From: an uncultured Actinomycetota bacterium
GTDB lineage: Bacteria; Actinomycetota; Nitriliruptoria; Euzebyales; Egibacteraceae
Assembly: GCA_964418395.1 (NCBI GenBank)
Contig: CAYQMQ010000001.1
Coordinates: forward strand, 1 to 41,573
DNA: 41,573 nt
Direction of reading: 5' to 3'
Position 1 is the first letter of the stretch; each line of letters begins with the position of its first letter. Shown here piece by piece: positions 11,960 to 41,573 of this stretch. Made by a program: the position numbers and the translations under genes. The notes beneath the pieces are model-generated. The model was not told the DNA's origin. It did no database searches and saw only the letters and a list, made by a program, of their open reading frames with translations.

Positions 11960-12028
11960 GCGAGCTCCTGTTCGCGCTCGGGCGCGGAAGGCTTCGCGGC
12001 AGGGCGCGCTGCGGACAAGCGGTGGGGC

Positions 12029-14005: not shown

Positions 14006-14070
14006 GGCACGATCCTTTCTTCGTCAGCGCACACCTACTGGGCGGTGGTGCACATCCCGAGCCTCCCGTG

Positions 14071-14205
14071 GTAAACCGTCGAATACCACGGTTTCCGGCC
14101 GAGCCACCGCTAGCCCCGCGGCGCAAACCGTCGAATGCCACGGTATCCGGCCGAGCCACCGCCAATCCCGCGGCGCAAACCGTCGAATGTCACGGTTTCC
14201 GCCCG
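14071..14205. repeat. Tandem direct repeat, 52-bp unit x about 2.6, each unit carrying the palindrome AAACCGT-N8-ACGGTTT
   Basis: Unit starts were read directly at 14073, 14125 and 14177 (AAACCGTCGAATACCACGGTTT, AAACCGTCGAATGCCACGGTAT, AAACCGTCGAATGTCACGGTTT). Units 1 and 2 continue with the near-identical CCGGCCGAGCCACCGC(T/C)A(G/A)(C/T)CCCGCGGCGC. The array lies between the molybdoenzyme stop (14279) and the CWB2-PQQ dehydrogenase start (14005). Confidence 0.9.
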
Positions 14206-16085: not shown

Positions 16086-17798
<1,713 letters not shown>

Positions 17799-17893
17799 GC
17801 GCCGCCGCCGTCTCCGGCGTCGGGCGGAGGTTCTCACCGCTGTCCCTGGGCAGCCCTTGGCACGGGACGGGCGATAGGTACGATCAGGGGTCT

Positions 17894-26222: not shown

Positions 26223-28421
26223 GTGGCTCGGTGCGCTGACGTGCCGGGAGCTCCCGGTGACGACACGCCAACCGCGGTCACCCCGTCCGGGTCTCACCGA
26301 GCCGTGAGAGCCGTGACGGACGGGCTGGGGCCATCCGGGCAGCGAGCGCTGGGCTCGCTGACAGTCCTCCGGCGGCACACGCTGCGCGCCCTCACCAAGC
26401 TCCGCCAGCGTCCGCACGGTCAGTCCACCGACTTGGGGCTGGCCGCCACGGTCGGGGTCGCCACCGGCCTCTTGGCCGTCGCGCTGATCGAAGTCATCAG
26501 CGTGGTGCAGACGTTCGCGTTCGGCAGCGACCCCAGCCCGCTGCGTCTCGTGCTCGCCCCGACGATCGGGGCGCTGATCGTCGGGGTGCTGGTGACCTAC
26601 TGGGCCACCGAGACACGCGGCAGCGGCGAGGTCCAGATCATGCGCAGCATGGCGACCGGCGGCGGCGGGCTGCGGGGGCGCACGCCGCTGGCCGGCCTCC
26701 TGGCTTCCGGTGTGGTGCTGGGAAGCGGCGTGTCCGGCGGCCGCGAGGGACCGATCGTGCTGATCGGCGGCAGCGTCGGCTCGTTGCTGGCCCGCATCTT
26801 CACCCTCGATGAGGAGCGCAAGCGCGGCCTCATCGGCGCCGGCGCCGCGGCCGGGATCGGGGCCTCGTTCAACGCGCCGATCGGCGGGATGCTGTATGCC
26901 ATCGAGCTGATCCTGGGGGGACTGCGCGCACGCTCGCTGCAGATGGTGGTGATCGCCTCGGTCGTGGCCTCCGTCACCGCCCAGGAGATCATCGGCGCCG
27001 GCATCATCTACGAGCCCAGCGCCGTCTACGAGCTGAACGACCCCCGCGAGCTCCTGCTGTATCTGCTGCTCGGGCTCGCCGCCGTGGCCGCCGGCCTCGG
27101 CCTGCAGTACAGCGAATACTGGGTGAGCGTGCTGTTCGAGCGGGTCGAGCGAGTGCGGCTCTGGCGCGCGCTGGGGTTCACCGCCGGCGGTTTGGGCACC
27201 GGGATCATCGCGTTGTGGCTCCCTGAGGTGTTGGGCACCGGCGGCGAGCTGCCCCCGGTGACCGAGTACCGCGAACCGATCCAGGCGATGCTGGACAACG
27301 AGATGGGATTCGATCTCGATCTCGGCTTCGTCGCGGTGGCCTTTCTTCTGCTGCTGGCGATCGGCAAGCTAGTGGCCACCGCGCTCGCCGTCGGCAGCGG
27401 CAACCCCGTGGGCACGTTCGCGCCGCTGTTGTTCATCGGCGCCGGGCTCGGCGGCGCCTTCGGCAACGCGGCCGTGGCGCTGCTCCCGGGCTCGGGGATC
27501 AACGCCGGCGCGTTCGCCCTGGTGGGGATGGCCGCGGTGTTCAGCGCCGCTGCCCGCGCGCCGCTGACCGCGATCGTCATCCCGTTCGAGCTCACCGGCG
27601 ACTACGGGCTGGTGCTCCCGCTGATGCTCGCGGCGGGTATTGCCGCGCTCGTCGCGGACCGGATCCAGCCCGAGTCGATCCACACCATGCCGCTGCGACA
27701 CGAGGGGATCATCGCCAGCGAGCCCGAGGAGATCGACCTGCTGCAGACCGTGACGGTCGACGCCGTCATGACCACCGATCCGCTCACCGTCACCTCCGAC
27801 ACGACGATGCACACGCTGCGGGCCACGCTGCGGGAGGCCGGTCACGCCGTGCCCGTCGTGGACGGCGACCAACTCATCGGGGTCGTCGCGCCCGCCGACC
27901 TGCCCGCCGAGAGCACCGACGCCGACGAGTACCTGACGGCGGGCGATCTGTGCACCCGCGATCCGGTGACGGTGGCTCCCACCGCCCCCGTCTACCGCGC
28001 CATGCGCCGCATGGCGTCGCTCGACATCGGGATGGTGCCCGTCGTCGCCCAGCAACAGCCCCGCCGGCTCGTCGGTGTCGTCCGCCGGGACGACCTCGTC
28101 GACGCCTACCGCCAGGCAGCCAACCGCAGCCTCGGGATGCAACAGCGCCAGGAAGCCTCCCAGCTCCGCGACCTGGGCGGGGCACGGTTCCTCGAGCTCG
28201 CCGTGCACGCGGACGCGCCCGCCGCCGAGCAGGCGGTCCGCGACATCACCTGGCCCGACCGCGCCGTGCTGACCGGCGTCCACCGCGACGGCGAGCTGTT
28301 GCTGCCGGACGGCGACACGGTGCTTGAAGCCGGCGACCAGCTCGTGGTGCTCACCGACAAGGACAACACCGAAGAGCTGCGCCGGCTCATCACCGAGCCC
28401 CGGGAGTACGGGGCGGGTTGA
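26223..28421 (+). CDS. ClC family chloride channel/antiporter with C-terminal CBS pair and TrkA-C domain
   Basis: Complete ORF. ClC selectivity motifs are GSGEVQ, GREGPIVLIGG and GNPVGTFAP. A CBS pair follows (VDAVMTTDPLTV...VPVVDGDQLIGVV; GDLCTRDPVTV...MVPVV), then a TrkA-C-like end (LTGVHRDGELLLPDGDTVLEAGDQLVVL). The start is uncertain: there are several in-frame GTGs and no early ATG. Confidence 0.85.
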   Translation: MARCADVPGAPGDDTPTAVTPSGSHRAVRAVTDGLGPSGQRALGSLTVLRRHTLRALTKLRQRPHGQSTDLGLAATVGVATGLLAVALIEVISVVQTFAFGSDPSPLRLVLAPTIGALIVGVLVTYWATETRGSGEVQIMRSMATGGGGLRGRTPLAGLLASGVVLGSGVSGGREGPIVLIGGSVGSLLARIFTLDEERKRGLIGAGAAAGIGASFNAPIGGMLYAIELILGGLRARSLQMVVIASVVASVTAQEIIGAGIIYEPSAVYELNDPRELLLYLLLGLAAVAAGLGLQYSEYWVSVLFERVERVRLWRALGFTAGGLGTGIIALWLPEVLGTGGELPPVTEYREPIQAMLDNEMGFDLDLGFVAVAFLLLLAIGKLVATALAVGSGNPVGTFAPLLFIGAGLGGAFGNAAVALLPGSGINAGAFALVGMAAVFSAAARAPLTAIVIPFELTGDYGLVLPLMLAAGIAALVADRIQPESIHTMPLRHEGIIASEPEEIDLLQTVTVDAVMTTDPLTVTSDTTMHTLRATLREAGHAVPVVDGDQLIGVVAPADLPAESTDADEYLTAGDLCTRDPVTVAPTAPVYRAMRRMASLDIGMVPVVAQQQPRRLVGVVRRDDLVDAYRQAANRSLGMQQRQEASQLRDLGGARFLELAVHADAPAAEQAVRDITWPDRAVLTGVHRDGELLLPDGDTVLEAGDQLVVLTDKDNTEELRRLITEPREYGAG

Positions 28422-28422
28422 G

Positions 28423-29238
28423 TTGGCTGGCGCACCACCGGAGGCGAGCCGGTCAGGCGGGGAGGGCGCCGCCCGGGCCGGGGATCGGGCCGGGACAACG
28501 CCACCGGCACGCGCGCGCTTCCACGGCGACCTCGTCGAGCTGGCCGCATGTGCGGACCGGACCGGCCTCGTGCTGGTGCGCGCTCCGTCGCACCGCACGG
28601 TCAAGGATGCCGTGGAGGCGTGCGGCGTACCCCACACCGAGGTGGACCTGCTGCTGGCCGACGGCGCCAGCGTCGGCTTCGCCCACCGCGTGCGCCCCGG
28701 GGCCACGCTCGACGTGTACCCGTGGGCGGGCGCGCCCCCCGACGAGCCGCCCTCGCTCGTGCGGCCCGAGCCGCTGCCCGCGCGCTTCGTGGCCGACGTG
28801 CACCTGCACCGCCTCGCCCAGCTGCTCCGGTTGGTCGGCGTCGACGTCCGCGCTCACGCCGGCGCCGACGATCCCGAGTTGGTCGACACCGCCGTGACCG
28901 AACGCCGGTGGCTGCTCACCCGGGATCGGGGGCTGCTGATGCGCCGCCGGGTCACGCACGGCTACCTCGTGCGGGCCCACGACCCCCGCGCGCAGCTGCG
29001 CGAGGTGGTCGCCCGCTTCGGCCTCGCCGACCGGCTCGCGCCCTTGACCCGCTGTGCCCACTGCAACTCGGGGCTGGCGCCGGTGGCCAAGGCCGATGTC
29101 GCCCACCGCCTGGAGCCGGGCACCAAGGCGGCGTTCGACGACTTCGCTCAGTGCACCGGCTGCGGGCAGGTCTTTTGGCGCGGGGCCCACGCCGAAGCGC
29201 TGGACGAGCTCATCGCCTCGACCCGACAGGGCTCCTGA
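28423..29238 (+). CDS. Ub-Mut7C protein: N-terminal ubiquitin-like beta-grasp, Mut7-C (DUF82, PIN-like) RNase domain and zinc ribbon
   Basis: This is the tail of ORF 28324..29238. The beta-grasp reads RFHGDLVEL...VKDAVEACGVPHTEVDLLLADGASVGFAHRVRPGATLDVYP. The Mut7-C domain reads RFVADVHLHRLAQLLRLVGVDV...ERRWLLTRDRGLL...RCAHCN...CTGCGQVFWRGAH. The only start codon upstream of the domain and outside the ClC gene is TTG 28423, 1 nt after the ClC stop. Confidence 0.75.
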   Translation: MAGAPPEASRSGGEGAARAGDRAGTTPPARARFHGDLVELAACADRTGLVLVRAPSHRTVKDAVEACGVPHTEVDLLLADGASVGFAHRVRPGATLDVYPWAGAPPDEPPSLVRPEPLPARFVADVHLHRLAQLLRLVGVDVRAHAGADDPELVDTAVTERRWLLTRDRGLLMRRRVTHGYLVRAHDPRAQLREVVARFGLADRLAPLTRCAHCNSGLAPVAKADVAHRLEPGTKAAFDDFAQCTGCGQVFWRGAHAEALDELIASTRQGS

Positions 29239-30916: not shown

Positions 30917-31537
30917 TCATCGATTCACCTCGAGATCGAAGCACGGCTGGCACAGCTCTCGCCCGTCGAAGCGGCGGAGCCGCGTCTCCATGACCTCCTC
31001 ACCACAGCGGACGCAAGGCACCGACTCCTTGATGCGCGCCCGTCGGGGGGGCTCGTCGTCGGCCGGCTCCACGGTGTACAGCTCCTCGGGGTCTTGGGCG
31101 AGCACCTGCTTAGAGCGCTGCAGGTGCAGTTGGCGGAACCGGTCGCGGTCGGCGTCGGTGGCCTGCCCGGCGCTGATGCGCCCGCGCAGGCGCTGGTGCT
31201 CCGGGTCGGGCTGCAGCGCGCCGGGGCGAGCGGCGACGCGCACGGCCTTGCCGTCGCTGCGCCGGAAGAAGGTGAAGGCCTTCTTGCCCCAGTCCCGGTG
31301 GACGAGGTTGCCCTTGCCAAACGTGCAACCCGTGAGGAACTGGATCGCGTCCACCCCGCACATGTCGGTCTCGACCACGGCGACCACGTCCTCGTCGGTG
31401 GTGTCGGGGCCGACCTCACGCAGAGCGAGGCGCGCCGCTTGCACCCCCATCGCCAAACCGGGGCACTGGTGGCCGTGGAAGGCCACGAGGCGCTCCAGCA
31501 CGGAGTCGTCGACGGCGTCTGGTGCGGTTGCGGTCAT
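30917..31537 (-). CDS. FmdE/FwdE family protein with C-terminal CXXC...CXXC zinc ribbon
   Basis: Complete ORF. The FmdE-like core reads FHGHQCPGLAMGVQAARLAL...VVETDMCGVDAIQFLTGCTFGKGNL. The zinc ribbon is CVRCGEEV...CQPC. A GAAGGAG ribosome-binding site precedes ATG 31537. Confidence 0.75.
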   Translation of the reverse strand: MTATAPDAVDDSVLERLVAFHGHQCPGLAMGVQAARLALREVGPDTTDEDVVAVVETDMCGVDAIQFLTGCTFGKGNLVHRDWGKKAFTFFRRSDGKAVRVAARPGALQPDPEHQRLRGRISAGQATDADRDRFRQLHLQRSKQVLAQDPEELYTVEPADDEPPRRARIKESVPCVRCGEEVMETRLRRFDGRELCQPCFDLEVNR

Positions 31538-31562
31538 GTCGGCTCCTTCGAGGGACGGATCG

Positions 31563-31592
31563 TCAGGAGGATGCCTGTCAGGAGGATGCCTG
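31563..31592. repeat. Perfect 15-bp tandem duplication (TCAGGAGGATGCCTG x2) spanning the stop codon of the SBP gene
   Basis: Read directly: 31563..31577 and 31578..31592 are identical. On the coding (minus) strand this reads CAGGCATCCTCCTGA twice, that is ...Q A S S stop followed by a second untranslated Q A S S stop. Confidence 0.9.
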
Positions 31593-33299
31593 GTCGGGCA
31601 GGCCGGTCTCCTGGCCGGTAACGAACATGTGCTTGTTACGGCTGCCGCGGCACGGGCTGCAGCCGGGGGTGTAGTACCACCCGTCGAAGGTTGCCTCGTC
31701 GTAGAACAGATACCGGGTGGGCACGTACAGCGACAGCACCGGCAGATCCTCGGCGATCTCGCGCTGCAGGTCGGCCACGATCTCGCGGCGCTCGTCGGGG
31801 TCGGTGGCGGTCAGCTGCGCCTCAGCGAGCTCGTCCACCTCGTCGTTGGCGTAGCCGTGCACCGTGGAGTGCCCGCGCGGTGGCGCTTCGGAGTGGTAGC
31901 GCTGGCGCAGGGTGTCCGGATCGGACATCAGCCCGCCGTATCCGACGGCTGACATCGTGTAGTTGCCCTCGGTGGCGGCCTCGTCGGCCGACGACCGGTC
32001 GACAACGTTCGGTTGGACGTCGATGCCAACGTCGCCTAGGTACTCAGCGACCAGCTCCGGGCCGTCGGCGGTGAAGCGGGAGCTTGCCAGCAGCTCGATC
32101 TCGAAGGGCTCGCCGTTGGGCAGCTCGCGTGTGCCGTCGCCGTCGCTGTCGGTGATGTCGAGCCCCTCGAGCAGCTCGCGCGCCTGCTCGGGGTCGTGGT
32201 CGTAGGTGGGCAGATCTCCGGGGTTGAACGGATGCTCGGGCGCCAACCCGCCGCTGCTGCCGGGCAGCCCTCGGCCGAACACCAGCCGGTCCACCATGTC
32301 CTGCTGATCGACGGCGTAGGCCACCGCGTGGCGGAAGTCGACCTCGTCGTAGGGAAAGCCTTCCTCGAGGTTGAAATGCAGCGCGAGGTTCCAGTCCGCG
32401 AAGCCGTCCACTCGTCCGAACTGGGCGTCGAAGGCCTCGTATTGCTCGTCGGGCAGCGGCTCGCGGGCGATCTCGGCGACGTCGAGCTCGCCGCGTTCTA
32501 AGGCCAACAGCTCGTCCTCGACGGAGACGAACTCGACGCGCTGCACGTGGGGCTCACCCAGGAAGAAGTCGTCGTTGGCCTCGAACAGGTAGTTGCCGGC
32601 GGCCTCGTCGTATTCGACCAGTTCGTAAGGCCCCGAGCCCACGAAGGCATCGTCCTCGAGATACTGCTGCGGATCGTCGACGTCGGACCAGATGTGCTCG
32701 GGCAGGATCATCATGCTGCCGGCCACGTCCGACTCGAACGCGGCGTAGGCTTGAGGCAGCTCGAAGGTGACGGTGCGCTCATCGGTGGCGACGACGTCGT
32801 CGACGACTTCGAGCGACCCGCCGCGGCCGGTGTCGGCCGCGGCGCCCTCGGTGTAGTAGTCGAACGAGAACGCCACGTCGTCGGCCGTCAGGGGCTCGCC
32901 GTCCTGCCAGGCGATGTCCTCGTGGAGGGTGAACGTCCACTCGGTCCCGTCATCGCTCGCCTCCCAGTCCTGGGCCAGCCACGGGCCGAACTCGCCGGAC
33001 GCGTCCCACCACAGCAGGGTGTCGAACTGATAGCCCGCGAGGATGCGGCCAGGCCCGCGAACCCACGAGAACGGCGTGGGCTGGCCGTAGTCGCCCCCGG
33101 CCACCCGAAGCCGTTCGATTCGCTCGTCATCGCCTGTCGCGTCGTCGGCGGTCTGCTCGGTCTCGTCCGAATCGTCAGTCTCGGGCTCGTCGGCCTGTTG
33201 ATCCGGGTCAGCGGTCGGGTCGCAGGCGGCCACCAGAAGGGCCGTCAGCATCAGCCCCGCCAGCCACAGCCAGGCATTGGTCGTGCGAACAGCGTGCAT
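31578..33299 (-). CDS. ABC transporter substrate-binding lipoprotein, family 5 (peptide/nickel/opine type), copy 1
   Basis: This is the tail of ORF 31578..33404 from ATG 33299, preceded by AAGGAG 8 nt upstream. The lipoprotein signal is MHAVRTTNAWLWLAGLMLTALLVAAC, followed by a ~35-aa acidic tether (DPTADPDQQADEPETDDSDETEQTADDATGDDE). The SBP_bac_5 body reads YQFDTLLWWDASGEF.PWLAQDWEASDDGTEWTFTLHEDIAWQDGEPLTADDVAFSF. The C-terminal motif is GCSPC. Confidence 0.85.
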   Translation of the reverse strand: MHAVRTTNAWLWLAGLMLTALLVAACDPTADPDQQADEPETDDSDETEQTADDATGDDERIERLRVAGGDYGQPTPFSWVRGPGRILAGYQFDTLLWWDASGEFGPWLAQDWEASDDGTEWTFTLHEDIAWQDGEPLTADDVAFSFDYYTEGAAADTGRGGSLEVVDDVVATDERTVTFELPQAYAAFESDVAGSMMILPEHIWSDVDDPQQYLEDDAFVGSGPYELVEYDEAAGNYLFEANDDFFLGEPHVQRVEFVSVEDELLALERGELDVAEIAREPLPDEQYEAFDAQFGRVDGFADWNLALHFNLEEGFPYDEVDFRHAVAYAVDQQDMVDRLVFGRGLPGSSGGLAPEHPFNPGDLPTYDHDPEQARELLEGLDITDSDGDGTRELPNGEPFEIELLASSRFTADGPELVAEYLGDVGIDVQPNVVDRSSADEAATEGNYTMSAVGYGGLMSDPDTLRQRYHSEAPPRGHSTVHGYANDEVDELAEAQLTATDPDERREIVADLQREIAEDLPVLSLYVPTRYLFYDEATFDGWYYTPGCSPCRGSRNKHMFVTGQETGLPDQASS

Positions 33300-33337
33300 C
33301 GATGATTCTCCTTGTGTTGCCATGCGATTTCGGATTC

Positions 33338-33360
33338 GACCGGCGGGTGGCCCACCGGTC
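33338..33360 (-). other. GC-rich stem-loop in the methyltransferase/SBP intergenic spacer (10-bp stem)
   Basis: The plus strand reads GACCGGCGGG-TGG-CCCACCGGTC. On the minus-strand transcript this is GACCGGUGGG-CCA-CCCGCCGGUC, with all 10 positions paired (one G-U). On the plus strand the same position would be a C-A mismatch, so the structure favours the coding-strand RNA. No U-tract follows. Confidence 0.35.
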
Positions 33361-33376
33361 GCGCGCCGGTTTCTGA

Positions 33377-34183
33377 CTACTGCTCGGTGGGAGGCGTCCA
33401 CCACAATGTGGCGGTGGCCCGCGTCGCCGGCGGTGGGTAGCGCTCGAGCAGTTCACGGATCTCGGGATCCCGATCGGGACCGAGACACAGCCGCTTGCGG
33501 GCGAAGGCGACTCGGTCGTCCACGGTGCGGTCGAGGTTCATCGACCGGGCCCACCGCTCGACGTGCACGTGGTAGCCGGCGGCTCGGATCGCCGCGATGG
33601 CGTCGTCGGCGGTGGGGCCGGCGGGCAGTTCGATGCCGTGCACGTGCCACCAGTACGGCCTCAGCCAGGCCGTGGGGTGTTCCTGGGTGAGCTGGACGAC
33701 CACTCGCCGTCGAGCGTGATGGGTCAGCGCGTGGACGAACGACTCGAGGTCGGCCACGCCGTAGAGGACGTTGTGGCACACGACCACGTCGACCATGGGA
33801 GCCTGGTTGGCGATGTCGGGCCAACGGCCCACGAGGGTGTCAAAGGTCGCTCCGCGGGCAGCGGCACGATCAGCGAATGCCTGCAGCATGCCCTCGGACT
33901 CGTCCACGCCGAACAGCTGGCCGGCGGGTGGCACCAACGGCAGCGATCCGGCTCCGGCCCCAGAGCCGACGTCCAACACGTTGCCGCCCTCGGGCAGCAC
34001 CTCTCGGGCCGCCTGCTGTGACGGTGTCGTCTCGTGGAGGGTTGCGTCGGCGATCCGCGCGAAGTGGGCAACGTCGAACCCGTGGGGCGACTCCGGAGCC
34101 GCGGCACGGATTTCACCGGGCACTGCCCGAGCGGCCAACTGGTCTGCCCACCGTTGGGCGGGGTTCGGTGTGGTGGTCGTCAT
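33377..34183 (-). CDS. Class I SAM-dependent methyltransferase
   Basis: This is the tail of ORF 33377..34309 from ATG 34183 (MTTTTPNPAQRW...). SAM motif I is VLDVGSGAGAGS, followed by post-I FGVDESEGML and VVVCHNVLYGV. The substrate cannot be inferred from sequence. Confidence 0.8.
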   Translation of the reverse strand: MTTTTPNPAQRWADQLAARAVPGEIRAAAPESPHGFDVAHFARIADATLHETTPSQQAAREVLPEGGNVLDVGSGAGAGSLPLVPPAGQLFGVDESEGMLQAFADRAAARGATFDTLVGRWPDIANQAPMVDVVVCHNVLYGVADLESFVHALTHHARRRVVVQLTQEHPTAWLRPYWWHVHGIELPAGPTADDAIAAIRAAGYHVHVERWARSMNLDRTVDDRVAFARKRLCLGPDRDPEIRELLERYPPPATRATATLWWTPPTEQ

Positions 34184-34236
34184 CGTGAACCTCGAGGTGT
34201 CAGCCACTGACGTCGCGCAGCGGTAGCGGCCATAGA

Positions 34237-35934
34237 TCAGCCACCGGTGACGTAGAGGTACTTGTTGCGGGTCGCCCCGCAGGGGGTGCACGTCGGGGTG
34301 TAGGCCCATGCGTCGAACACCGACTCGTCGTAGAACGTCAGCCGGTCGGGCACGTACAGCGACAGCACGGGCAGGTCCTCGGCGAGGATCTGCATCATCT
34401 CGGCCACGATCTCCTTGCGCTCGTCCTCGTCGACGGTGACCAACTGTTGCTCGGCGAGCTCATCCAACTCGTCGTTCGCATAGCCGTGCACCGACGTGAA
34501 GCTGTCGTTCGGTGTCTCGGAGTGATACCGCTCGCGCAGCCGGTCGGGGTCGCTGCCCAACCCGCCATAGCCGTGCAGGGCCATCGTGTAGTTGCCTTCC
34601 TGGCCGGCTTCGTCGGAGCTGGCGCGATCCAGCATCGTCACCTGTACGTCCAAGCCAACCTCGCCGAGATATTCGGCCACCAGCTCGGGGTCCCGGGGTC
34701 CGAAGCGCTGGCTGGAGTTCAACTCGATCTCGAACGATTCACCGTTGGGCAGCTCGCGGGTGTCGTCATCGTCGGCGTCGGTGATGTCCAGCCCGTCGAG
34801 CAGCTCGCGGGCCTGCTCGAGATCGTGTTCGTAGGCCGGCAGATCGTTGGGGGTGTAGGGGTGGTCGGGGGTCAGTCCGCCGGTGCTTCCCGGTTGCCCG
34901 CGGCCGAACAGCAGCCGGTCGACCATGTCCTGGCGGTCGATGGCGTAGGCCACGGCGTGGCGAAAGTCGACCTCGTCGAAGGGAAAGCCGGCATCGAGGT
35001 TGAAGTGCAGCGCGTGGTTCCACTCCCCCGATGCCTCGGCCAGCCCGTATTGGGAGTCGAAGGACTCGAACTGCTCGTCGGGCAGCGGATCGCGGAACAC
35101 CCCGGCGGCGTGAATCTCGCCGCGCTCGAGGGCCAGCAGCTCGTCTTCGATCTCCGGTATGAACTCGAGGCGCTGCACCACGGGCTCGCCGAGGAAGAAG
35201 TCGTCGTTGGCCTCGTAGAGGTAGCTGCCGGCGGCCTCGTCGAACTCGACCAACTCGTAGGCACCCGTGCCGACGAACGCGTCGTCCTCGAGATATTGGC
35301 CCGGCTCGTCAACGTCGGACCAGATGTGCTCAGGCAGGATGAACATGCCCCAAAGTCCGGCCACGTTGTCCTCGAACCCGGCGAACGGCTGGGACAAACG
35401 GAAGACGACCTCGCGATCGCCTTCGGCGACGACCTCGTCCACGACGTCGAGGTTGCTGGTGTGAATCCCCGGTGGCCCGTCGGTCATGTACTCGAAGCTG
35501 AAGACCACGTCGTCGACCGTCAGCGGCTCGCCGTCGTGCCACTGCACGTCCTCGCGCAGGGTGAACGTCCATTCGGTGCCGTCGTCGTTGGACTCCCAGT
35601 CCTCGGCCAGCCACGGGATCGTCTCGCCATCGGGGTTCATCCACAGCAGCGTGTCGAACAAGAAGCCGGTGTGGATCAGCCCGGGACCACGCACGTAAGC
35701 GAAGGGTGTGGGGTGGCCGAAGTCGCCGCCGCCCAGCCGCAGCCGCTCGATGCGCTCGGTCTCGGCGGTGTCGTCGGACTCGTCGTCGGAGGTTTCGGAG
35801 CCGGTGTCGGATTCGTTCCCAGAAGCCGTGGCTTCGTCAGGAGAATCGTCGGCCGTCGGGCTGCACGCCACCGCCAGCGCGAGGCAGGCGAGCAGGAAAA
35901 TGGAGGTAAGCAGCTTGCCGGTCTTGGTCATCAT
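34237..35934 (-). CDS. ABC transporter substrate-binding lipoprotein, family 5, copy 2 (paralog of 31578..33299)
   Basis: Complete ORF. The lipoprotein signal is MMTKTGKLLTSIFLLACLALAVAC, with acidic tether SPTADDSPDEATASGNESDTGSETSDDESDDTAETE. The body is collinear with copy 1 (ERIERLRLGGGDFGHPTPFAYVRGPGLIHTGFLFDTLLWMNPDGETIPWLAEDWESNDDGTEWTFTLREDVQWHDGEPLTVDDVVFSFEY). The C-terminal motif is TCTPC. The start overlaps the ATPase stop (ATGATGA). Confidence 0.88.
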   Translation of the reverse strand: MMTKTGKLLTSIFLLACLALAVACSPTADDSPDEATASGNESDTGSETSDDESDDTAETERIERLRLGGGDFGHPTPFAYVRGPGLIHTGFLFDTLLWMNPDGETIPWLAEDWESNDDGTEWTFTLREDVQWHDGEPLTVDDVVFSFEYMTDGPPGIHTSNLDVVDEVVAEGDREVVFRLSQPFAGFEDNVAGLWGMFILPEHIWSDVDEPGQYLEDDAFVGTGAYELVEFDEAAGSYLYEANDDFFLGEPVVQRLEFIPEIEDELLALERGEIHAAGVFRDPLPDEQFESFDSQYGLAEASGEWNHALHFNLDAGFPFDEVDFRHAVAYAIDRQDMVDRLLFGRGQPGSTGGLTPDHPYTPNDLPAYEHDLEQARELLDGLDITDADDDDTRELPNGESFEIELNSSQRFGPRDPELVAEYLGEVGLDVQVTMLDRASSDEAGQEGNYTMALHGYGGLGSDPDRLRERYHSETPNDSFTSVHGYANDELDELAEQQLVTVDEDERKEIVAEMMQILAEDLPVLSLYVPDRLTFYDESVFDAWAYTPTCTPCGATRNKYLYVTGG

Positions 35935-37751
35935 GTGGTTACTCCGGGTTCATGCGAGTGACGGTCGGGGGCGGAGAGGGTGTGGGCCTGCCCGTTGGGA
36001 GACGCCTGAGGTCCCTGGGCCAGCGGAGCGCCGCTGGCGGCGAGCAGCCGTTGGGTGACGGGGTGTTGAGGGGCGACCAGCAGCTGCGTGCTGGTGGCCT
36101 CCTCGACGACCCGACCCTCGTCGAGCACCACGACACGGTCGGCGACGCGCAGGACCACGGCGAGGTCGTGGGAGATGAAGATCATCGCCATCCCGCGGTC
36201 GACCTGCAGGGTCTTGAGCAGCTGCAACAGCTTGGTCTGCTCGGAGGGGTCGAGCATGGCCACGGACTCGTCGGCGATGAGCAGCTTGGGCTCGAGCACC
36301 AGCGCGCGGGCCAGCGCCACCCGCTGCAGCTGGCCGCCGGACAGCTCGTGGGTGTGGCGCTCCAGGAAGCTGGGATCGGCCGGCAGCCGGGCGTCGCTGA
36401 GGGCGTCGGCGACAGTGGCGTCGCGGTCGCCGGGTTCGCCGAGATGTTGGATGTCGAGTGGCTCGCGCACCGCCTGGCGCACCGTCAGCCGTGGCGACAA
36501 GGCCTCGAAGGGGTCTTGGAACAGCATCTGGGCCTTCTGGCGCAGGGCCTTGAGCGCGTCGTGGCCGGCGGCGAGCACGTCGCGGGCCTGCAGGTGGACG
36601 CTGCCGGCGTCGGGCTCGACCAGCCGCAACAGCAGCTGGCCCAGCGTCGACTTGCCGGCCCCGGTCCCGCCGACGCAGCCCAGGACCTCGCCTTCGCGGA
36701 CCTCGAGGTCGATGCCGTCGACGGCGGTGACGGTCTCGCGGCGGACCACGCCGGTGCGCACCTGATAGGTCTTGCGCAGCCCGCGCGCGGACAACACCGG
36801 CACCAGCCCGCCGCGGATGCACGCGACCGTGCGGGCTCCGTCCTCACCCTCGGGGGCCAGCAACGGCGGCCGGTCGTGGGTGCACTCGTCGATCGCTTGG
36901 GTGCAGCGCTCGAAGAACGGACACCCCGTGGCCACCTCGGTGGGGTCGGGTGGCATGCCGCGGATGCCGCGCAGGTCCTTGACGGTGCCCAGCGACGGAT
37001 AGGCGTTGAGCAGCCCCCAGGTGTAAGGGGCCCGGGGGTCGTCCAGGATCCGCTCGGCGGGGCCGATCTCGGCCAGCCAGCCCCGGTAGAGGACCGCCAC
37101 CCGATTGGCGAGCCCGCGCAGCGCGTCGACGTCGTGGGTGAACACCACCAGCGTCCGCCCCGCGTCGCGCATCCCGGCCAGCAGCTGCAACACCTCGTGG
37201 CGGCGCAGCACATCGAGCCCGGCGGTGGGCTCGTCCAGGACCACGACGTCGGGGTCGCAGGCCAGCGCGATGGCCAAAAGCGACAGACGACGTTGGCCAC
37301 CGGACAGCTCGTTGGGGTAGCGCGCCACGGCCCACGCCCCGAGACCGACCTCCTCCAACAACTGCGCGGCGCGCTGGCTGGCGGCGCGCGGGCTCAGGTC
37401 CAGATGGACCTGGATCGGTTCGGCGATCTGGTCGCCGACGCGCAGTACGGGGTTGAGCGCCGCCGTCGACTGGAACACCAGCGACAAGCGGCGCCAGCGG
37501 ACCTCGCTCCAGCCGTCCTCGTCGAGCTCCACGAGGTCGGTGCCGTCGAGGCGCGCCGTGCCCTCGAGCTGGGCCTCGGGCACCAAGCCCAGCAACGCCT
37601 TGGCCAGTGTCGACTTGCCCGATCCGGATTCGCCGAGCACCCCGACGCACTCGCCCGAGTGCACGGTCAGGTCCAGGTCGTCCACGGCCCGCACCGGCGG
37701 CGGGCCGGGATAGGTCACCCGGAGCCCGCTGATGTCCAACGCTGCGGTCAC
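35931..37751 (-). CDS. ABC transporter ATP-binding protein, fused tandem (DppD/DppF-like) ATPase
   Basis: This is the C-terminal 606 codons of ORF 35931..38642. Cassette 1 has GESGSGKST, LSGGQRRLSLLAIAL and VVVLDEPTAGLD. Cassette 2 has GGTGAGKSTL, LSGGQLQRVALARAL and LLIADESVAMLD. An Opp-type Cys motif, GCPFFERC...C, lies between the cassettes. GTG start 37751 overlaps the permease stop (GTGA). Confidence 0.88.
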   Translation of the reverse strand: MTAALDISGLRVTYPGPPPVRAVDDLDLTVHSGECVGVLGESGSGKSTLAKALLGLVPEAQLEGTARLDGTDLVELDEDGWSEVRWRRLSLVFQSTAALNPVLRVGDQIAEPIQVHLDLSPRAASQRAAQLLEEVGLGAWAVARYPNELSGGQRRLSLLAIALACDPDVVVLDEPTAGLDVLRRHEVLQLLAGMRDAGRTLVVFTHDVDALRGLANRVAVLYRGWLAEIGPAERILDDPRAPYTWGLLNAYPSLGTVKDLRGIRGMPPDPTEVATGCPFFERCTQAIDECTHDRPPLLAPEGEDGARTVACIRGGLVPVLSARGLRKTYQVRTGVVRRETVTAVDGIDLEVREGEVLGCVGGTGAGKSTLGQLLLRLVEPDAGSVHLQARDVLAAGHDALKALRQKAQMLFQDPFEALSPRLTVRQAVREPLDIQHLGEPGDRDATVADALSDARLPADPSFLERHTHELSGGQLQRVALARALVLEPKLLIADESVAMLDPSEQTKLLQLLKTLQVDRGMAMIFISHDLAVVLRVADRVVVLDEGRVVEEATSTQLLVAPQHPVTQRLLAASGAPLAQGPQASPNGQAHTLSAPDRHSHEPGVTT

Positions 37752-38656
37752 GACGTCCTCCCGGTCGAGTGACGAGCCAGTCGGGGATTGATGCGCTGTT
37801 CGACGCCCACGCCGAGGAACGTGATCCCGAGCAACAGCACGGTGATGGCCACCAGCGGCGGGCCCAGCCACCACATCCAGGCGGTGGTGTAGAACACCCC
37901 CGAGAACTCCAGCGAGTCGCGCATGATCTGGCCCCAGCTGGCCCGGCTGGGGTCGCCCAGCCCGAGGAAGGCCAGGCCGGCTTCGAGCATCACGGCGCGG
38001 CCGGCGGACGAGACCAGCCCGGCCACCAGAATCAGCCCGACCTCGGGCAAGAGGTGGCGGCGCAGCACGTAGGCGGTCTCTCCGCCAAATCCCATGGCGG
38101 CCTTGACGTGGGAGCGGCGCCGCAGCGACAGGACCTGGGAGCGCACCACGCGGGCCGAGCTGGGCCAGAACGTCAGCGCGATCGCCGCCGAGATCACCCA
38201 GATGGACGGGCCCGCGTAGGCGCCCAGCACGATCAGCAGCGGCAGCCGGGGGACGGCCAGCACGAAGTCGACCACGCGCATCGCCGCCGCGTCGACCAGC
38301 CCGCCGACCCAGCCGGCCATCATCCCGACCAGCGCGCCGATCACCACCGTGCCGCCGCCGGCCAGGGCGGCCACGGTCAGCGACACGCGCGCGCCGGACA
38401 CCAGCTGGCTGGTCAGGTCCTGGCCGACCCCGTTGGTGCCCAACAGGTGGGTGGCACTCGGCGGTTGCAGCGGCTGGCCGATCAGCTCGGTGGGCCGGTA
38501 GGGGGCCACCCACCCTCCGAGCGCCGCGACGGCCACCACGGCGGTCACGATGGCCACGCCGACCCACCCGATGGTCGGCAACGCGCCCCCTGCTGCCCGA
38601 AGCCGCTTGCTGGCCGGGGCTCGCGCCGGGTTCGGCGACCACACGCCGCTGGTCAT
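37748..38656 (-). CDS. ABC transporter permease (DppC/NikC-like)
   Basis: Complete ORF. It has an N-terminal TM segment, the LLGTNGVGQDLTSQL motif, and an EAA-like loop (SHVKAAMGFGGETAYVLRRHLLPEV). ATG 38656 overlaps the upstream permease stop (ATGA). Confidence 0.88.
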   Translation of the reverse strand: MTSGVWSPNPARAPASKRLRAAGGALPTIGWVGVAIVTAVVAVAALGGWVAPYRPTELIGQPLQPPSATHLLGTNGVGQDLTSQLVSGARVSLTVAALAGGGTVVIGALVGMMAGWVGGLVDAAAMRVVDFVLAVPRLPLLIVLGAYAGPSIWVISAAIALTFWPSSARVVRSQVLSLRRRSHVKAAMGFGGETAYVLRRHLLPEVGLILVAGLVSSAGRAVMLEAGLAFLGLGDPSRASWGQIMRDSLEFSGVFYTTAWMWWLGPPLVAITVLLLGITFLGVGVEQRINPRLARHSTGRTS

Positions 38657-39840
38657 TCGGTTCCCACCCGCGGGTCGAGCCGCCGGTAGACCAGCTCGAT
38701 GACGAAGTTGGCCGCCAGCACCGTGACCGCCAGCGTCAAAAACACCGCTTCCAGCACGGGGTAGTCGCGCGCTTCGACCGCTTCGAGGATCAGCGCGCCC
38801 ATGCCGGGATAGGCAAAGACCGTCTCGACGAAGATCGAGCCGCCCACCGCCGTGCCCACCTGCAGCGCCATCACCGTCAGAAACGGCAGCAGCGCGTTGC
38901 GGCCCACGTGGCGGAACTGCTGCAGCCGCACCGGCAGGCCTTTCGCGCGGGCCAGCTGCATGTAGTCCTCACCCAGCACCGAGATCGCGGTGTTGCGCAC
39001 CAACAAGAACTTGGTGCCGATCAGCGACAGCGTCAGCGCCAGCAGCGGCAACGCGAGGTGGAAGGCGACGTCGCCGATCTGTTCCCACACCGACTCGTAT
39101 TCGGCAAACGACGTGTAGGCGCCGAACAGGGGAAACAGCGGGATCAAGACGGCCAGGCCGATCATCAGCAGGGCCGCCAGCGCGTACTCGGGCAGCCCGC
39201 GCAGCCCCGTCAGGGCCACCAGCACCACGCGGTCCGGCAAGCGCCCGCGGTTCCAGGCGGCCACGATCCCCGCCACGTAGCTGATCGTGGCCGACAGCAG
39301 CAATGCTAAGCCGACCAGCAGCAGCGTCCACGGCAGGTGGCCGGCGATCAGGCCTGCCACGGGGGCGTTGCGCGCCACCGACCAGCCCAGGTCGCCGGTG
39401 GCGAGGCTGCCCAGATAGTCCACGTACTGCTCGTGCAGCGGCCCGTCGAGGCCGTAGTAGCTCAACACCTGCTGGCGGACCTCGGGGTCGGTGATGAAAT
39501 AGCCCGTGTCCGGGTCCTCCAGCGCCGACAACGGATCGCCGGGCATCGCCCGCGGCAACAAGAACACCATGGTCACGATCGCCATCAACGTGATCCCGTA
39601 CAGCCCGATCAGCCGCAACGTGGCGCCGCGTCGACTCCTAACCGGCGGTGCCTCGAGTTCCTCCCCGCCCGGACTCGTCGAATCGGCCGGATGCGCGGGT
39701 GGGGCCGGGCCATCGGGTGCCGGCGACGGGGCGCCAGCGGGGCCAGCGGCCCCATCTCGCGTGCGCGTCAGAGGTGCCTCCTGTCTGTCCCTGCCGTCGC
39801 TTCCTTCCTGCGCATCCGTATACTCGGACTTCAAGCGCAC
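38653..39840 (-). CDS. ABC transporter permease (DppB/NikB-like); 5' boundary uncertain
   Basis: ORF 38653..39840 (GTG start). The conserved body begins near LRLIGLYGITLMAIVTMVFLLPRAMPGDP and includes the EAA-like loop DYMQLARAKGLPVRLQQFRHVGRNALLP. The first 74 codons are Pro/Ala/Gly-rich, and by my count 22 of them end in A/T, unlike the rest of the gene. TTG 39618 may therefore be the true start. Confidence 0.8.
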   Translation of the reverse strand: MRLKSEYTDAQEGSDGRDRQEAPLTRTRDGAAGPAGAPSPAPDGPAPPAHPADSTSPGGEELEAPPVRSRRGATLRLIGLYGITLMAIVTMVFLLPRAMPGDPLSALEDPDTGYFITDPEVRQQVLSYYGLDGPLHEQYVDYLGSLATGDLGWSVARNAPVAGLIAGHLPWTLLLVGLALLLSATISYVAGIVAAWNRGRLPDRVVLVALTGLRGLPEYALAALLMIGLAVLIPLFPLFGAYTSFAEYESVWEQIGDVAFHLALPLLALTLSLIGTKFLLVRNTAISVLGEDYMQLARAKGLPVRLQQFRHVGRNALLPFLTVMALQVGTAVGGSIFVETVFAYPGMGALILEAVEARDYPVLEAVFLTLAVTVLAANFVIELVYRRLDPRVGTE

Positions 39841-39860
39841 TCGAGATCAATAGGTGTCTT

Positions 39861-41573
39861 TTGCATACAGCAAACAGTCGCGACGGTGCGGAGCGGCTGC
39901 TGTCCATCGGGGAGGTGGCCCAGCGCACGCAGCTGCGCCCATCGGCCTTGCGCTTCTACGAGGAGAAGGGGCTGATCACCCCGACCACCAGGATCGGCGG
40001 CAAGCGCCGCTATCACCCCGCGATCCTGCGTCGCCTAGCCCTCATCGAGATGGCCACCCGGGCGGGGTTCACGCTGGCCGAGACCGGCGAATTGCTCGGC
40101 GACACCAGCGACGAGCCGAGCTGGCGGCAGTGGGACGACCTGGCCACCCGGAAGGTCCACGAGCTCGAGGAGACCATTCAGCGGGCGCGGACCATGCAGC
40201 GCCTACTAGAGGACGGTCCGTTCAGTGTGCGGCGAGCGGGCGGCCGGTGGGGCTATCCCTCGCCGTTCGCCTACCGACGCGGTCCGGGGCTGACCCAGGC
40301 CAGCCTCCTGTTCGACACCCTGCTGTGGAAAAACACTGATGGCCACCTGCTGCCATGGCTGGCCGCGAGCTGGGACCTGCGCACCGACGGGCGCGCGTAC
40401 CGGTTCATGCTGCGCGACGACGTCGAGTGGGCCGACGGCGTCGCCTTCACCGCAGACGACGTGGCCTTCACCGTCACCTACCTCACCTCAGGCGCCGGCA
40501 ACCGGCCCCTGGTCAGCCACGCCCGCGGACTCGACGCCGTTGACGGCGTCCGCGTCGACGACGACCACACCGTCACCTTCGAGCTGAAACGGCCCCACGC
40601 GTCGTTCCTCGAATGGGTCGCCGGGCGCATGCTCATCATCCCCCGCCACGTCTGGGAGGGCGTCACCGATCCGGTCAGCTTCCGCCAGCCCGAGGCGACC
40701 GTCGGCACCGGGCCTTACCGGCTGGAGTCGTGCGACGACGAGGCGGGAAGCTATCGCTACACGGCCAACGACGGCTACTTTCAGGGAGCACCCTACGTGC
40801 GACGCCTCGAGTTCGTGCCCGTGCGCGACTCGTTGAACGCGCTCGCCAACGGGGAGATCGACGTCGCCGAGTACATCTCTGACGCGCATCGACCCAGCCG
40901 CCAGCAGCTCGAGGGCTTCGCCTTCCCCGACTACGCACAGCGGACCCGCCCCGGGGAGTGGACGCGGGCCCTCCACGTGAACCTGTCACGTGGCTTTCCC
41001 TACGACGACCGGCGCTTTCGCCACGCGGTGGCCCACGCCATCGACCGACCGGCTTTGATCGACGCATTGCTCGACGGTCTCGGCGAGCCCGGCAGCCCCG
41101 GCGGCATGGCCCCGTCCCACGCGTGCGCCGCTTCTGGCTTGCCCACCTACCAGCACGACCCGGCCGCCGCTCGGGCACTGCTCGACCAGCTCGGCATGGC
41201 CTCCCACCCGAGCGCCCGACTTCGAGGGCTGCCAGACGGCAGCTCCTTCCGGCCAGTGTTGCAGACGGACGCCAACGACCCTGGCGCCGCCGAGCTCGTC
41301 GCCGCACAACTGCAGGAGGTGGGCCTTGACGTCCGGGTCGCGCGCATGCCACCAGACCAAGCGGACGCGACTGCTGCGGCGGGCGGCTACGAGCTCGCGC
41401 TCGTCGGCCACGGCTCGTTGGGTGGGGATCCCGATCTGCTGCGGTTGCAGCTGTCTGTCCACGCGCCGTCGAGGCAGCGCACCAAGGCCCACGGCTATCA
41501 CCACCCCGAAGTTGAGCGTCTCGCCGAGGCGCAGCGCCGGTGTCTCGATACCACTCGCCGCCGTCAGCTGCTC
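39861..41573 (+). CDS. MerR-family HTH domain fused in frame to a signal-less family-5 substrate-binding (SBP_bac_5) domain; 3' end lies beyond the window
   Basis: Not in the ORF track because no stop lies in the window. My translation in the frame of TTG 39861 stays open for all 571 codons to 41573. The MerR part reads ...RLLSIGEVAQRTQLRPSALRFYEEKGLITPTTRIGGKRRYHPAILRRLALIEMATRAGFTLAETGELL, followed by the coiled coil WRQWDDLATRKVHELEETIQRARTMQRLLED. It then runs directly into GGRWGYPSPFAYRRGPGLTQASLLFDTLLWKNTDGHLLPWLAASWDLRTDGRAYRFMLRDDVEWADGVAFTADDVAFTVTYL... This last stretch aligns residue for residue with the two lipoprotein SBPs of the facing operon. The start codon is uncertain (TTG; no in-frame ATG or GTG nearby). 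Confidence 0.8.
   Translation, partial: MHTANSRDGAERLLSIGEVAQRTQLRPSALRFYEEKGLITPTTRIGGKRRYHPAILRRLALIEMATRAGFTLAETGELLGDTSDEPSWRQWDDLATRKVHELEETIQRARTMQRLLEDGPFSVRRAGGRWGYPSPFAYRRGPGLTQASLLFDTLLWKNTDGHLLPWLAASWDLRTDGRAYRFMLRDDVEWADGVAFTADDVAFTVTYLTSGAGNRPLVSHARGLDAVDGVRVDDDHTVTFELKRPHASFLEWVAGRMLIIPRHVWEGVTDPVSFRQPEATVGTGPYRLESCDDEAGSYRYTANDGYFQGAPYVRRLEFVPVRDSLNALANGEIDVAEYISDAHRPSRQQLEGFAFPDYAQRTRPGEWTRALHVNLSRGFPYDDRRFRHAVAHAIDRPALIDALLDGLGEPGSPGGMAPSHACAASGLPTYQHDPAAARALLDQLGMASHPSARLRGLPDGSSFRPVLQTDANDPGAAELVAAQLQEVGLDVRVARMPPDQADATAAAGGYELALVGHGSLGGDPDLLRLQLSVHAPSRQRTKAHGYHHPEVERLAEAQRRCLDTTRRRQLL

Follow-up and report, generated by a model that had tools for sequence, protein, structure and literature searches.

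The DNA analysed here, referred to as the window, is the 41,573-bp contig CAYQMQ010000001.1 from an uncultured Actinomycetota bacterium of the family Egibacteraceae. The gene at its right-hand end encodes a protein in which a MerR-type DNA-binding module is fused to a family-5 solute-binding protein (SBP5) domain. Facing it on the opposite strand is a cassette that encodes an ATP-binding cassette (ABC) importer, two secreted lipoprotein SBP5s, a methyltransferase, and an FmdE-like protein (Table 1). The original prediction, made from the sequence alone, was that the fusion is a one-component regulator sensing, inside the cell, the ligand that the importer takes up.

Table 1. Features of the fusion gene, of the adjacent regulatory DNA, and of the divergent cassette.
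Feature	Position	Strand	Basis
Fusion gene, 5' 571 codons, TTG start	39861..41573	+	Open frame to the contig end
SoxR-like MerR module: winged helix-turn-helix (wHTH; residues 15-79) and dimerisation helix alpha5 (residues ~86-118)	39903..40211	+	Pfam, NCBIfam, AlphaFold2
Junction, residues 118-123 (DGPFSV), no cysteine left	40212..40229	+	Alignments, AlphaFold2 model
Cytoplasmic family-5 (cluster C) solute-binding domain, without signal peptide or lipobox	40227..41573	+	Pfam, AlphaFold2, Foldseek
Predicted operator ACTTCAAG-CGCA-CTCGAGAT (39828-39847), then CAA	39828..39850	+	SoxR-box-like 8-4-8 inverted repeat
Predicted -35 hexamer TTGATC, overlapping an operator arm	39845..39850	-	TTGAyy in 15/15 loci
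Predicted -10 hexamer GAGTAT, 19 nt from the -35	39820..39825	-	Cross-locus spacer comparison
ABC permease 1, NikB/OppB-like	38653..39840	-	Pfam BPD_transp_1; NCBIfam Opp2B nickel permease, E = 1e-61, under cut-off
ABC permease 2, NikC/OppC-like	37748..38656	-	Pfam BPD_transp_1 and OppC_N; NCBIfam
Fused double ATPase, two ABC_tran and oligo_HPY	35931..37772 (start approximate)	-	Pfam; NCBIfam DppD/F- and NikD/E-like
Secreted lipoprotein SBP5, paralog 1	34237..35934	-	Pfam, E = 4.2e-71; lipobox LAVAC and acidic tether
Class I S-adenosylmethionine (SAM)-dependent methyltransferase	33377..34309	-	Pfam Methyltransf_25/12/11
Secreted lipoprotein SBP5, paralog 2	31578..33404	-	Pfam, E = 4.2e-68
FmdE-like protein with C-terminal DksA/TraR C4 zinc finger, last cassette gene	30917..31537	-	FmdE, E = 2.4e-44; zf-dskA_traR, E = 4e-7

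A MerR module and a solute-binding domain in one reading frame

Translation of the fusion gene yielded 571 codons with zero stops, in a frame that exits the window at its 3' end. The window is the entire contig of the NCBI record, and the 3' end of the gene is therefore missing. The closest full-length relative, P0001 (633 residues, N-terminus MHIANSR), displays 89% identity across all 571 codons, and its length indicates that the window copy lost about 62 codons at the contig end. Pfam searches with the fusion protein detected MerR_1 (residues 15-79, E = 1.1e-13, 51.5 bits for a cut-off of 21.6), MerR (residues 15-51, 44 bits for a cut-off of 28.2), MerR-DNA-bind (residues 56-117, E = 2e-10, 41.6 bits for a cut-off of 25.4), and SBP_bac_5 (residues 164-525, E = 1.7e-66, 225 bits), all above the curated cut-offs. 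The original prediction had read a MerR wHTH and coiled coil running into an SBP_bac_5 domain in a single frame; the open frame and the profile searches for the two domains bear this out. No match to SgrR_N (PF12793) was found in the fusion protein by Pfam, and no model attained its cut-off in the NCBIfam scan. In NCBI records, fusion proteins are labelled either 'ABC transporter substrate-binding protein' or 'MerR family transcriptional regulator'.

An AlphaFold2 model of P0001, computed as a single chain from 123 aligned sequences, was obtained with a mean predicted local distance difference test score (pLDDT) of 92.6 and a predicted template modelling score of 0.84. The MerR module comprises helices at residues 16-23, 27-35, 54-67, 72-79, and 86-118 in this model. 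The last of these, alpha5, is 33 residues long, with a mean pLDDT of 83-93 per 10-residue block from residue 91. The first beta-strand of the solute-binding protein (SBP) domain (residues 122-127) follows alpha5 directly, with no spacer. In the single-chain model, alpha5 is thus predicted to be the long coiled-coil dimerisation helix that characterises the MerR family.

Among 5.8 billion protein clusters searched, 36 (counted at 90% identity) had the MerR and SBP_bac_5 architecture and the same junction. These proteins of 600-690 residues, 46-89% identical, come from assemblies other than that of the window, mostly from metagenomes, with a few metagenome-assembled genomes of Acidimicrobiales, Egibacteraceae, and Actinomycetota. 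Alignment of 37 fusions (the 36 clusters and the window copy), which are 47-89% identical to P0001, revealed a conserved junction consisting of ...M(Q/K)RLLxxG, a short linker, the first SBP strand, and the motif (Y)PSPF..RGPG..FDTLLW. In a HMMER search of 1.84 billion representatives at 50% identity, a single representative, P0031, spanned profile positions 5-627; among the matches listed, all others started at profile position ~96 or later and covered the SBP part only. Three fusion loci were found among 185,579 species-representative genomes (3 of the 17 loci of the genome scan), and a metagenome scan returned at least one fusion locus, among 80 loci retained. As judged from these sequence searches, the fusion family is real, narrow, and rare, and has been seen so far only in uncultured Actinomycetota.

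The incomplete gene at a contig end could have pointed to an artefact, in which mis-assembly or a deletion joined a MerR gene and an SBP gene into a non-functional chimera, and the original prediction had itself raised the possibility of an assembly-made fusion. This explanation is refuted for the family, and what chance it retains is negligible, because the 36 clusters, from independent assemblies, share both architecture and junction. In addition, the fusions form a monophyletic clade, both domains are conserved, and the single-chain model is confident.

In a neighbour-joining tree of the SBP region, all 37 fusions and one N-terminally truncated fusion formed a single clade. The two secreted SBPs of the window were each other's nearest relatives, in a clade separate from the fusions. 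Since the fused SBP domains are monophyletic and stand apart from the secreted SBPs of the window, the tree points to descent of the MerR-SBP5 proteins from one ancient fusion event and not from a recent local duplication. The description of the fused domain as a copy of the importer's own SBP was misleading in this respect.

Two divergent fusion paralogs, P0030 (664 residues, locus L004) and P0031 (639 residues), are each assigned to a soil-metagenome contig of 72,396 bp, possibly the same one, and one genome may carry two MerR-SBP5 regulators. SBP5 relatives of ~700 residues with long N-termini were considered as further transcription-factor fusions and rejected, since no DNA-binding domain was recognised among the 10 proteins checked. 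Six of these bore a prepilin N_methyl motif and four had no recognised N-terminal domain. In P0159, P0174, P0177, P0192, P0217, and P0231 (~665-720 residues), an N-terminal type IV prepilin-like motif replaces the lipobox, and these solute-binding proteins may accordingly be processed or anchored in the manner of pilins.

A SoxR-like module and a conserved solute-binding domain

The best regulator model for the fusion protein in NCBIfam was that of SoxR (TIGR01950; E = 2e-19, 69.7 bits, under the cut-off of 116.9), ahead of CueR, MerR, and ZntR. The N-terminal 120 residues of the fusions are 31-35% identical to Escherichia coli SoxR (35% for the window copy). Their nearest stand-alone relatives, proteins of 126-179 residues displaying 43-55% identity, have been named SoxR by the Joint Genome Institute. 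Alignment with E. coli SoxR revealed that the [2Fe-2S] motif of SoxR, CX2CXCX5C, is absent from the fusions. In the clade of the window copy, the corresponding region reads GPFSVRRAGG and contains zero cysteines. Fusions of a long-linker clade (e.g. P0023-P0028 and P0034-P0036) keep only a CxC pair aligned to C122 and C124 of SoxR; besides this pair, most of them have a distant third cysteine. By alignment, the fusion is assigned to the SoxR branch of the MerR family, yet it lacks the cysteine motif of the SoxR subfamily and scores below the TIGR01950 cut-off.

A stand-alone SoxR-like protein encoded in locus L102 (positions 97-537, forward strand, 146 residues) is 53% identical to the MerR part of the fusions and retains CxCx5C, without the first SoxR cysteine. 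A protein of this type is a plausible ancestor. Because CX2CXCX5C is gone in the fusions and CxCx5C is kept in the stand-alone protein, it appears that the iron-sulphur (Fe-S) sensor tail of a SoxR-like ancestor was replaced by the SBP5 domain.

The fused SBP domain displays 44% identity with secreted paralog 1 of the window (E = 6e-122), 42% with paralog 2 (E = 3e-117), and 42-52% with secreted SBPs overall, over the whole domain. The signal peptide, lipobox cysteine, and acidic tether of the paralogs end just before the motif (E)RLR(L/V)xGG, and the SBP part of the fusion begins, with SVRRAGG, where this motif begins. Two statements of the original prediction are therefore upheld: the fused domain is a paralog of the two lipoproteins of the operon, the quoted peptide strings being present, and the MerR module takes the place of exactly the export and anchoring segments. 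The N-terminus being a DNA-binding domain and an export signal being absent, the fusion protein, on its sequence, is not a transport receptor.

Foldseek comparison of the fused domain with the PDB gave NikZ, NikA, and CcNikZ-II as best matches (E of ~1e-34, TM scores of 0.80-0.87, 18-23% identity). DppA, AppA, and CntA were close behind, and sugar-binding SBP5s scored nearly as high. NikA was also the top PDB sequence match of the family profile (E = 4e-54). In the profile-NikA alignment, R97 and H416 correspond to variable columns and R137 lies inside an insertion; we take these three residues to be those that bind Ni-(His)2 in NikA. The nickel model TIGR02294 scored 112 bits for a cut-off of 393, and the nickel, peptide, and opine models of NCBIfam all scored far under their cut-offs. 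NikA-like nickel binding was rejected on the basis of the residue mapping and of these scores, and the fused domain is, by the same sequence comparisons, not an orthologue of NikA.

Conservation was assessed against 85 relatives without a fusion; a lipobox-like motif is present in 63 of them. The relatives are at least 90% conserved at 143 columns, and at 89 of these (62%) the same residue is present in at least 90% of the fusions. Twenty of the 143 columns are relaxed in the fusions, five of them acidic, and 10 columns are newly fixed. The SBP domain thus appears intact, under purifying selection, and probably functional. The pattern is the one expected if the ligand cleft has been kept and the constraint imposed by docking to the permeases has presumably been lost.

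The relaxed and newly fixed columns would also fit a fused domain that binds no small ligand and acts as a protein-interaction or oligomerisation module, for example one that responds to transporter activity by docking to cytoplasmic portions of the ABC system, or to the FmdE or methyltransferase proteins. Regulators controlled by transporters are known, as exemplified by MalT with MalK and Mlc with PtsG. We nevertheless regard such a role as quite improbable. The most conserved columns that are kept include PSPF...RGPG...FDTLLW, and the five acidic positions among the relaxed columns may be at the surface, which would fit the loss of permease docking better than the loss of the cleft. Several fusion loci, moreover, have a lone adjoining SBP5 gene and no transporter core.

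The predicted operator and the facing uptake cassette

In each of the 13 fusion loci, the fusion gene is immediately preceded by an 8-4-8 inverted repeat. The cross-locus consensus is A(C/G)(C/T)T(C/G/A)AA(G/C)-N4-(G/C)T(T/C)(G/C)A(G/A)(G/A)T, followed by CAA, and the half-sites include ACCTCAAG, ACTTCAAG, and ACTTGAAG. The motif ASYTVAASNNNNSTYSARRTCAA has a single match in the window even if one mismatch is allowed, for 0 expected by chance. Across 113 loci, every match to the pattern is located immediately 5' of a fusion gene or of one of two SoxR-like genes. The first SoxR-like gene is the complete stand-alone gene of L102 (operator at 67-89); the second, in L101 (operator at 813-835), is cut by the end of its contig. 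A generic repeat search of the window did not detect the imperfect operator repeat.

Toward the divergent gene, the sequence TTGAyy, 19 nt, nAnnnT was present in all 15 loci (13 fusion and two SoxR-like loci), with TTGACT-19-TACCCT in L102. When spacers of 16-21 nt were compared, only 19 nt placed A at position 2 and T at position 6 of the -10 hexamer in 15 of 15 loci. A generic sigma-70 scan of positions 39500-40000, limited to spacers of 16-18 nt, returned no promoter. Promoters of the type activated by MerR regulators are defined by a palindrome embedded in a 19-nt spacer. The predicted site, with its over-long spacer, is thus consistent with a MerR-type promoter carrying an operator of the SoxR-box type. 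The fusion start codon is within tens of nt of the operator in general, 13 nt from it in the window and 2 nt in L001. No riboswitch or leader RNA was found in the window and six related loci by an Rfam search at the gathering threshold.

The longest open reading frame for permease 1 (GTG at 39840) begins inside the operator, and the real start is therefore probably downstream of ~39812. A stretch of ~190 nt (39620-39812, reverse strand) that separates the predicted promoter from the start of the membrane-spanning part of permease 1 is either an untranslated leader or a Pro/Ala-rich N-terminal extension; the equivalent stretch of L005 (~9330-9975) is ~650 nt long.

At 12 of the 13 fusion loci, the gene facing the fusion encodes a paralogous secreted SBP5 or belongs to a complete ABC cassette of the Nik/Opp type. 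The set of two permeases, ATPase, two SBP5s, and FmdE-like protein is present in four loci including the window, three of which also have the SAM-dependent methyltransferase. Opposite the fusion gene, the same gene set occurs in L005 (Egibacteraceae) and in L104, where the fusion is 78% identical and the short contig contains no methyltransferase gene. In L108, SBP5 and permease genes stand beside the fusion. SBP5 and ATPase genes adjoin it in L004, with methyltransferase, FmdE, and permease genes nearby. The divergent gene encodes an SBP5 of the same subfamily, a twin-arginine translocation (Tat) lipoprotein, in L001, L002, L007, L008, L009, and L107; L026 appears to match L008, as judged from similarity of the upstream sequence only. 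The FmdE-domain gene is found in the cassettes of L005, L104, L111, and L112, and near permease genes in L004.

Two loci with an unfused SBP5, L111 and L112, contain a cassette in the order FmdE-methyltransferase-permease-permease-ATPase-SBP5 with a divergent gene for a LysR-type regulator. As this regulator holds the equivalent position, the comparison suggests that the MerR-SBP5 fusion takes the regulator's place beside an uptake cassette that recurs and is still uncharacterised. The claim that the fusion is placed to control the facing operon through a MerR-type promoter is supported: a conserved predicted operator is located within the 19-nt spacer at all 13 fusion loci and at the two loci with SoxR-like genes.

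The reading that we favour, with moderate confidence, is that the fusion is a cytoplasmic, one-component, ligand-responsive regulator of the SoxR lineage of MerR proteins, which activates the facing importer in response to a ligand bound in the SBP cleft. A dimer held by the coiled coil of alpha5 would bind the SoxR-box-like repeat at 39828-39847. This repeat lies inside the over-long spacer of TTGATC-N19-GAGTAT, the predicted promoter of the divergent import cassette. A small molecule would enter the cleft of the fused SBP domain, the simplest candidate being the imported substrate or an intracellular derivative of it. The signal would then travel via the directly attached alpha5, the spacer DNA would be untwisted, and RNA polymerase would use the promoter, as in activation of the MerR/SoxR type. 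The regulator probably controls its own synthesis as well, since its start codon is within tens of nt of the operator. More tentatively, the same receptor family may be used twice for one solute. The lipoprotein SBP5s would bind it outside the cell and the SBP5 welded to the SoxR-like module would read it inside, closure of the clamshell driving the untwisting of DNA.

Several observations weigh against activation by a ligand of the cleft. The operator pattern was derived from the same loci in which it was then counted, which makes the count to some extent circular. The window copy of the repeat is imperfect, with five of eight positions complementary, and was recognised only via orthologous sites; the -10 elements match TATAAT at only two to three of six positions. 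In one locus, L105/L106, the divergent gene encodes a secreted FG-GAP protein and not an SBP5. The 20 relaxed columns of the SBP domain could include ligand contacts. Finally, should the substrate be a metal chelate, it would be uncommon for its importer to be under positive feedback.

This last point leads to an alternative in which architecture and operator are the same and the logic differs: the ligand-bound form would repress the importer, in a negative feedback similar to that of NikR, or the effector would not be the transported solute. In the latter case, it could be what the methyltransferase or the FmdE protein produces, or a metabolite with no connection to the cassette. Repression by the cargo is usual among metal importers. 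NikZ, NikA, and CntA, which the SBP domain resembles in structure and in profile searches, bind nickel or metallophores, the top NCBIfam match of the permease is a nickel permease, and metal-related genes (Fur and ABC-3 in L001, a CsoR-like gene in L005) are found at some of the loci. The ligand of SgrR, an E. coli regulator with an SBP5 domain considered below, is moreover unsettled after two decades, which shows that the most obvious molecule is not necessarily the one bound by a sensor of this kind (PMC13060122). The conserved 19-nt spacer is, in contrast, a hallmark of MerR-type activation and unlike simple repression. In addition, R97, R137, and H416 of NikA have no conserved counterparts in the alignment, and the nickel-family NCBIfam scores are all far under their cut-offs. 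We consider this alternative, in either form, unlikely. As to the ligand in the activation reading, the structural neighbours and some genomic neighbours hint, faintly, at a metal chelate.

Additional observations were made on the cassette and its surroundings. The cassette of the window (30917-39840, reverse strand) is of a recurrent actinobacterial type with one or two SBP5 lipoproteins, in which the methyltransferase is usual and not universal. The methyltransferase gene is located between the two SBP genes in the window and after the FmdE gene in L005. The called methyltransferase frame shares 73 nt (34237-34309) with the 3' end of the SBP5 gene that precedes it, and its true start is for this reason probably further downstream. 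The methyltransferase had no specific NCBIfam match and a best E of ~1e-3 in a PDB sequence search. For the FmdE protein, the PDB sequence search retrieved only uncharacterised structural-genomics entries, and NCBIfam gave no functional clue. In L001, genes for Fur and for a Mn/Zn-type transporter (ABC-3/ABC_tran) at 11932-14142 adjoin the fusion locus, and L005 contains a CsoR-like Trns_repr_metal gene (15058-15339) together with rhodanese and TauE genes.

The remainder of the window, which has a G+C content of 72%, includes genes for an Mpa/ARC-type proteasomal ATPase (690-2540), a CLC channel with CBS and TrkA_C domains (26223-28421), and a Mut7-C RNase with a ubiquitin-like domain (28324-29238). 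The G+C content and the proteasomal ATPase make an actinomycetal source probable. A glucose/sorbosone dehydrogenase-like protein (12029-14005, reverse strand) and a GHL10 glycosyl-hydrolase-like protein (23663-26110, forward strand) are both secreted and carry triple CWB2 cell-wall-binding repeats. A polyphosphate kinase frame (16976-20134) has an unexplained N-terminal extension of ~360 residues, which may reflect an over-called start.

Comparison with known regulators

The likeness of the fusion to SoxR extends from the protein, with 31-35% identity over the wHTH and alpha5 of E. coli SoxR and SoxR as top NCBIfam match, to the DNA. Operators of the fusion loci are of the SoxR type, ACCTCAAG-N4-CTTGAGGT, the soxS box of E. 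coli being ACCTCAAGTTAACTTGAGGA. The half-site ACCTCAAG of L009 and L026 equals that of the E. coli box ACCTCAAG-TTAA-CTTGAGGA. The E. coli soxS promoter, TTTACC-tcaagttaacttgaggaat-TATACT, has a 19-nt spacer and a repeat that starts from base 4 of the -35 hexamer, the same geometry as in the fusion loci. In both E. coli and the fusion loci, the regulator gene is divergent from its known or predicted target and its start codon is close to the -35 hexamer, in E. coli a few bases beyond it. The fusions differ from SoxR by an SBP5 domain of ~510 residues in place of a 30-residue tail, and by a predicted target that is an ABC importer, whereas SoxR controls a stress regulon.

Large sensors are not without precedent in the MerR family. 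BmrR, TipAL, and CarH carry GyrI-like, TipAS, and B12-binding domains, respectively, after alpha5 and act by promoter distortion, a group overlooked in the statement that MerR regulators normally have short effector sites. We know of no periplasmic-binding-protein fold among the sensors of these three regulators, and of none that is a paralog of the receptor of the regulated transporter. If the proposed mechanism is correct, the fusion would be the first MerR-family regulator with a Venus-flytrap trigger, a clamshell of ~500 residues, and domain replacement would have made a sensor of metabolites out of an Fe-S redox sensor. The steps of this evolution can be traced unusually well, from a SoxR-like ancestor through loss of the Fe-S cysteines to addition of an SBP5 domain at the end of alpha5.

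Family-5 solute-binding domains have been found as sensors in other transcription factors. E. coli SgrR combines SgrR_N (E = 2e-43) with SBP_bac_5 (E = 2.2e-21) in Pfam, and Vibrio cholerae DsvR consists of a helix-turn-helix (HTH) domain and an SBP_bac5 solute-binding domain, according to a 2026 preprint (PMC13060122). These two proteins contradict the initial claim that no characterised regulator uses a cluster C SBP as its sensor. Like the fusion, SgrR and DsvR are cytoplasmic transcription factors with an N-terminal DNA-binding domain and a C-terminal family-5 SBP sensor. The DNA-binding domain of SgrR is SgrR_N, in contrast to the MerR domain of the fusion, and the two architectures arose by separate fusion events. 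Only residues 165-306 of SgrR are matched by SBP_bac_5 in Pfam, ~40% of the model, and SgrR is not known to be paired with a paralogous ABC importer or to act through a MerR-type promoter mechanism with a 19-nt spacer. The NCBIfam model of SgrR weakly matches a secreted SBP of the window. On its sequence, the fusion resembles SgrR functionally and is not a member of the SgrR family.

Regulators combining an HTH with SBP_bac_5 are thus already known, and the fusion is not a conceptual first. New are the combination of a SoxR-type MerR module with a cluster C SBP, its apparent origin by replacement of an Fe-S sensor, and the tight pairing with paralogous secreted SBPs. A literature search, whose incomplete coverage makes it weak evidence of absence, found neither a MerR-SBP5 fusion nor the FmdE-ABC cassette described. 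If the proposed function is correct, the fusion would provide a natural template for modular SBP-based biosensors and a handle on a recurrent actinobacterial cassette, with a soluble, signal-less sensor domain that would be easy to use in ligand screening. The fusion would also be the natural counterpart of engineered biosensors that combine an SBP with a transcription factor (e.g. PMC6079105).

NikA, NikZ, and CntA, the best structural matches, differ from the fused domain by their export signals. LacI/GalR and LysR regulators resemble the fusion in that a solute-binding-protein fold has been recruited as a cytoplasmic one-component sensor. Their sensors are small type I/II domains, whereas that of the fusion is a large three-part cluster C domain, and the DNA-binding domain and mechanism differ as well. 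If the fusion acts as proposed, it would represent a third route from solute-binding folds to cytoplasmic sensors, the first within the MerR family, and a second, genomically better-anchored system besides SgrR for signalling from a family-5 SBP to DNA.

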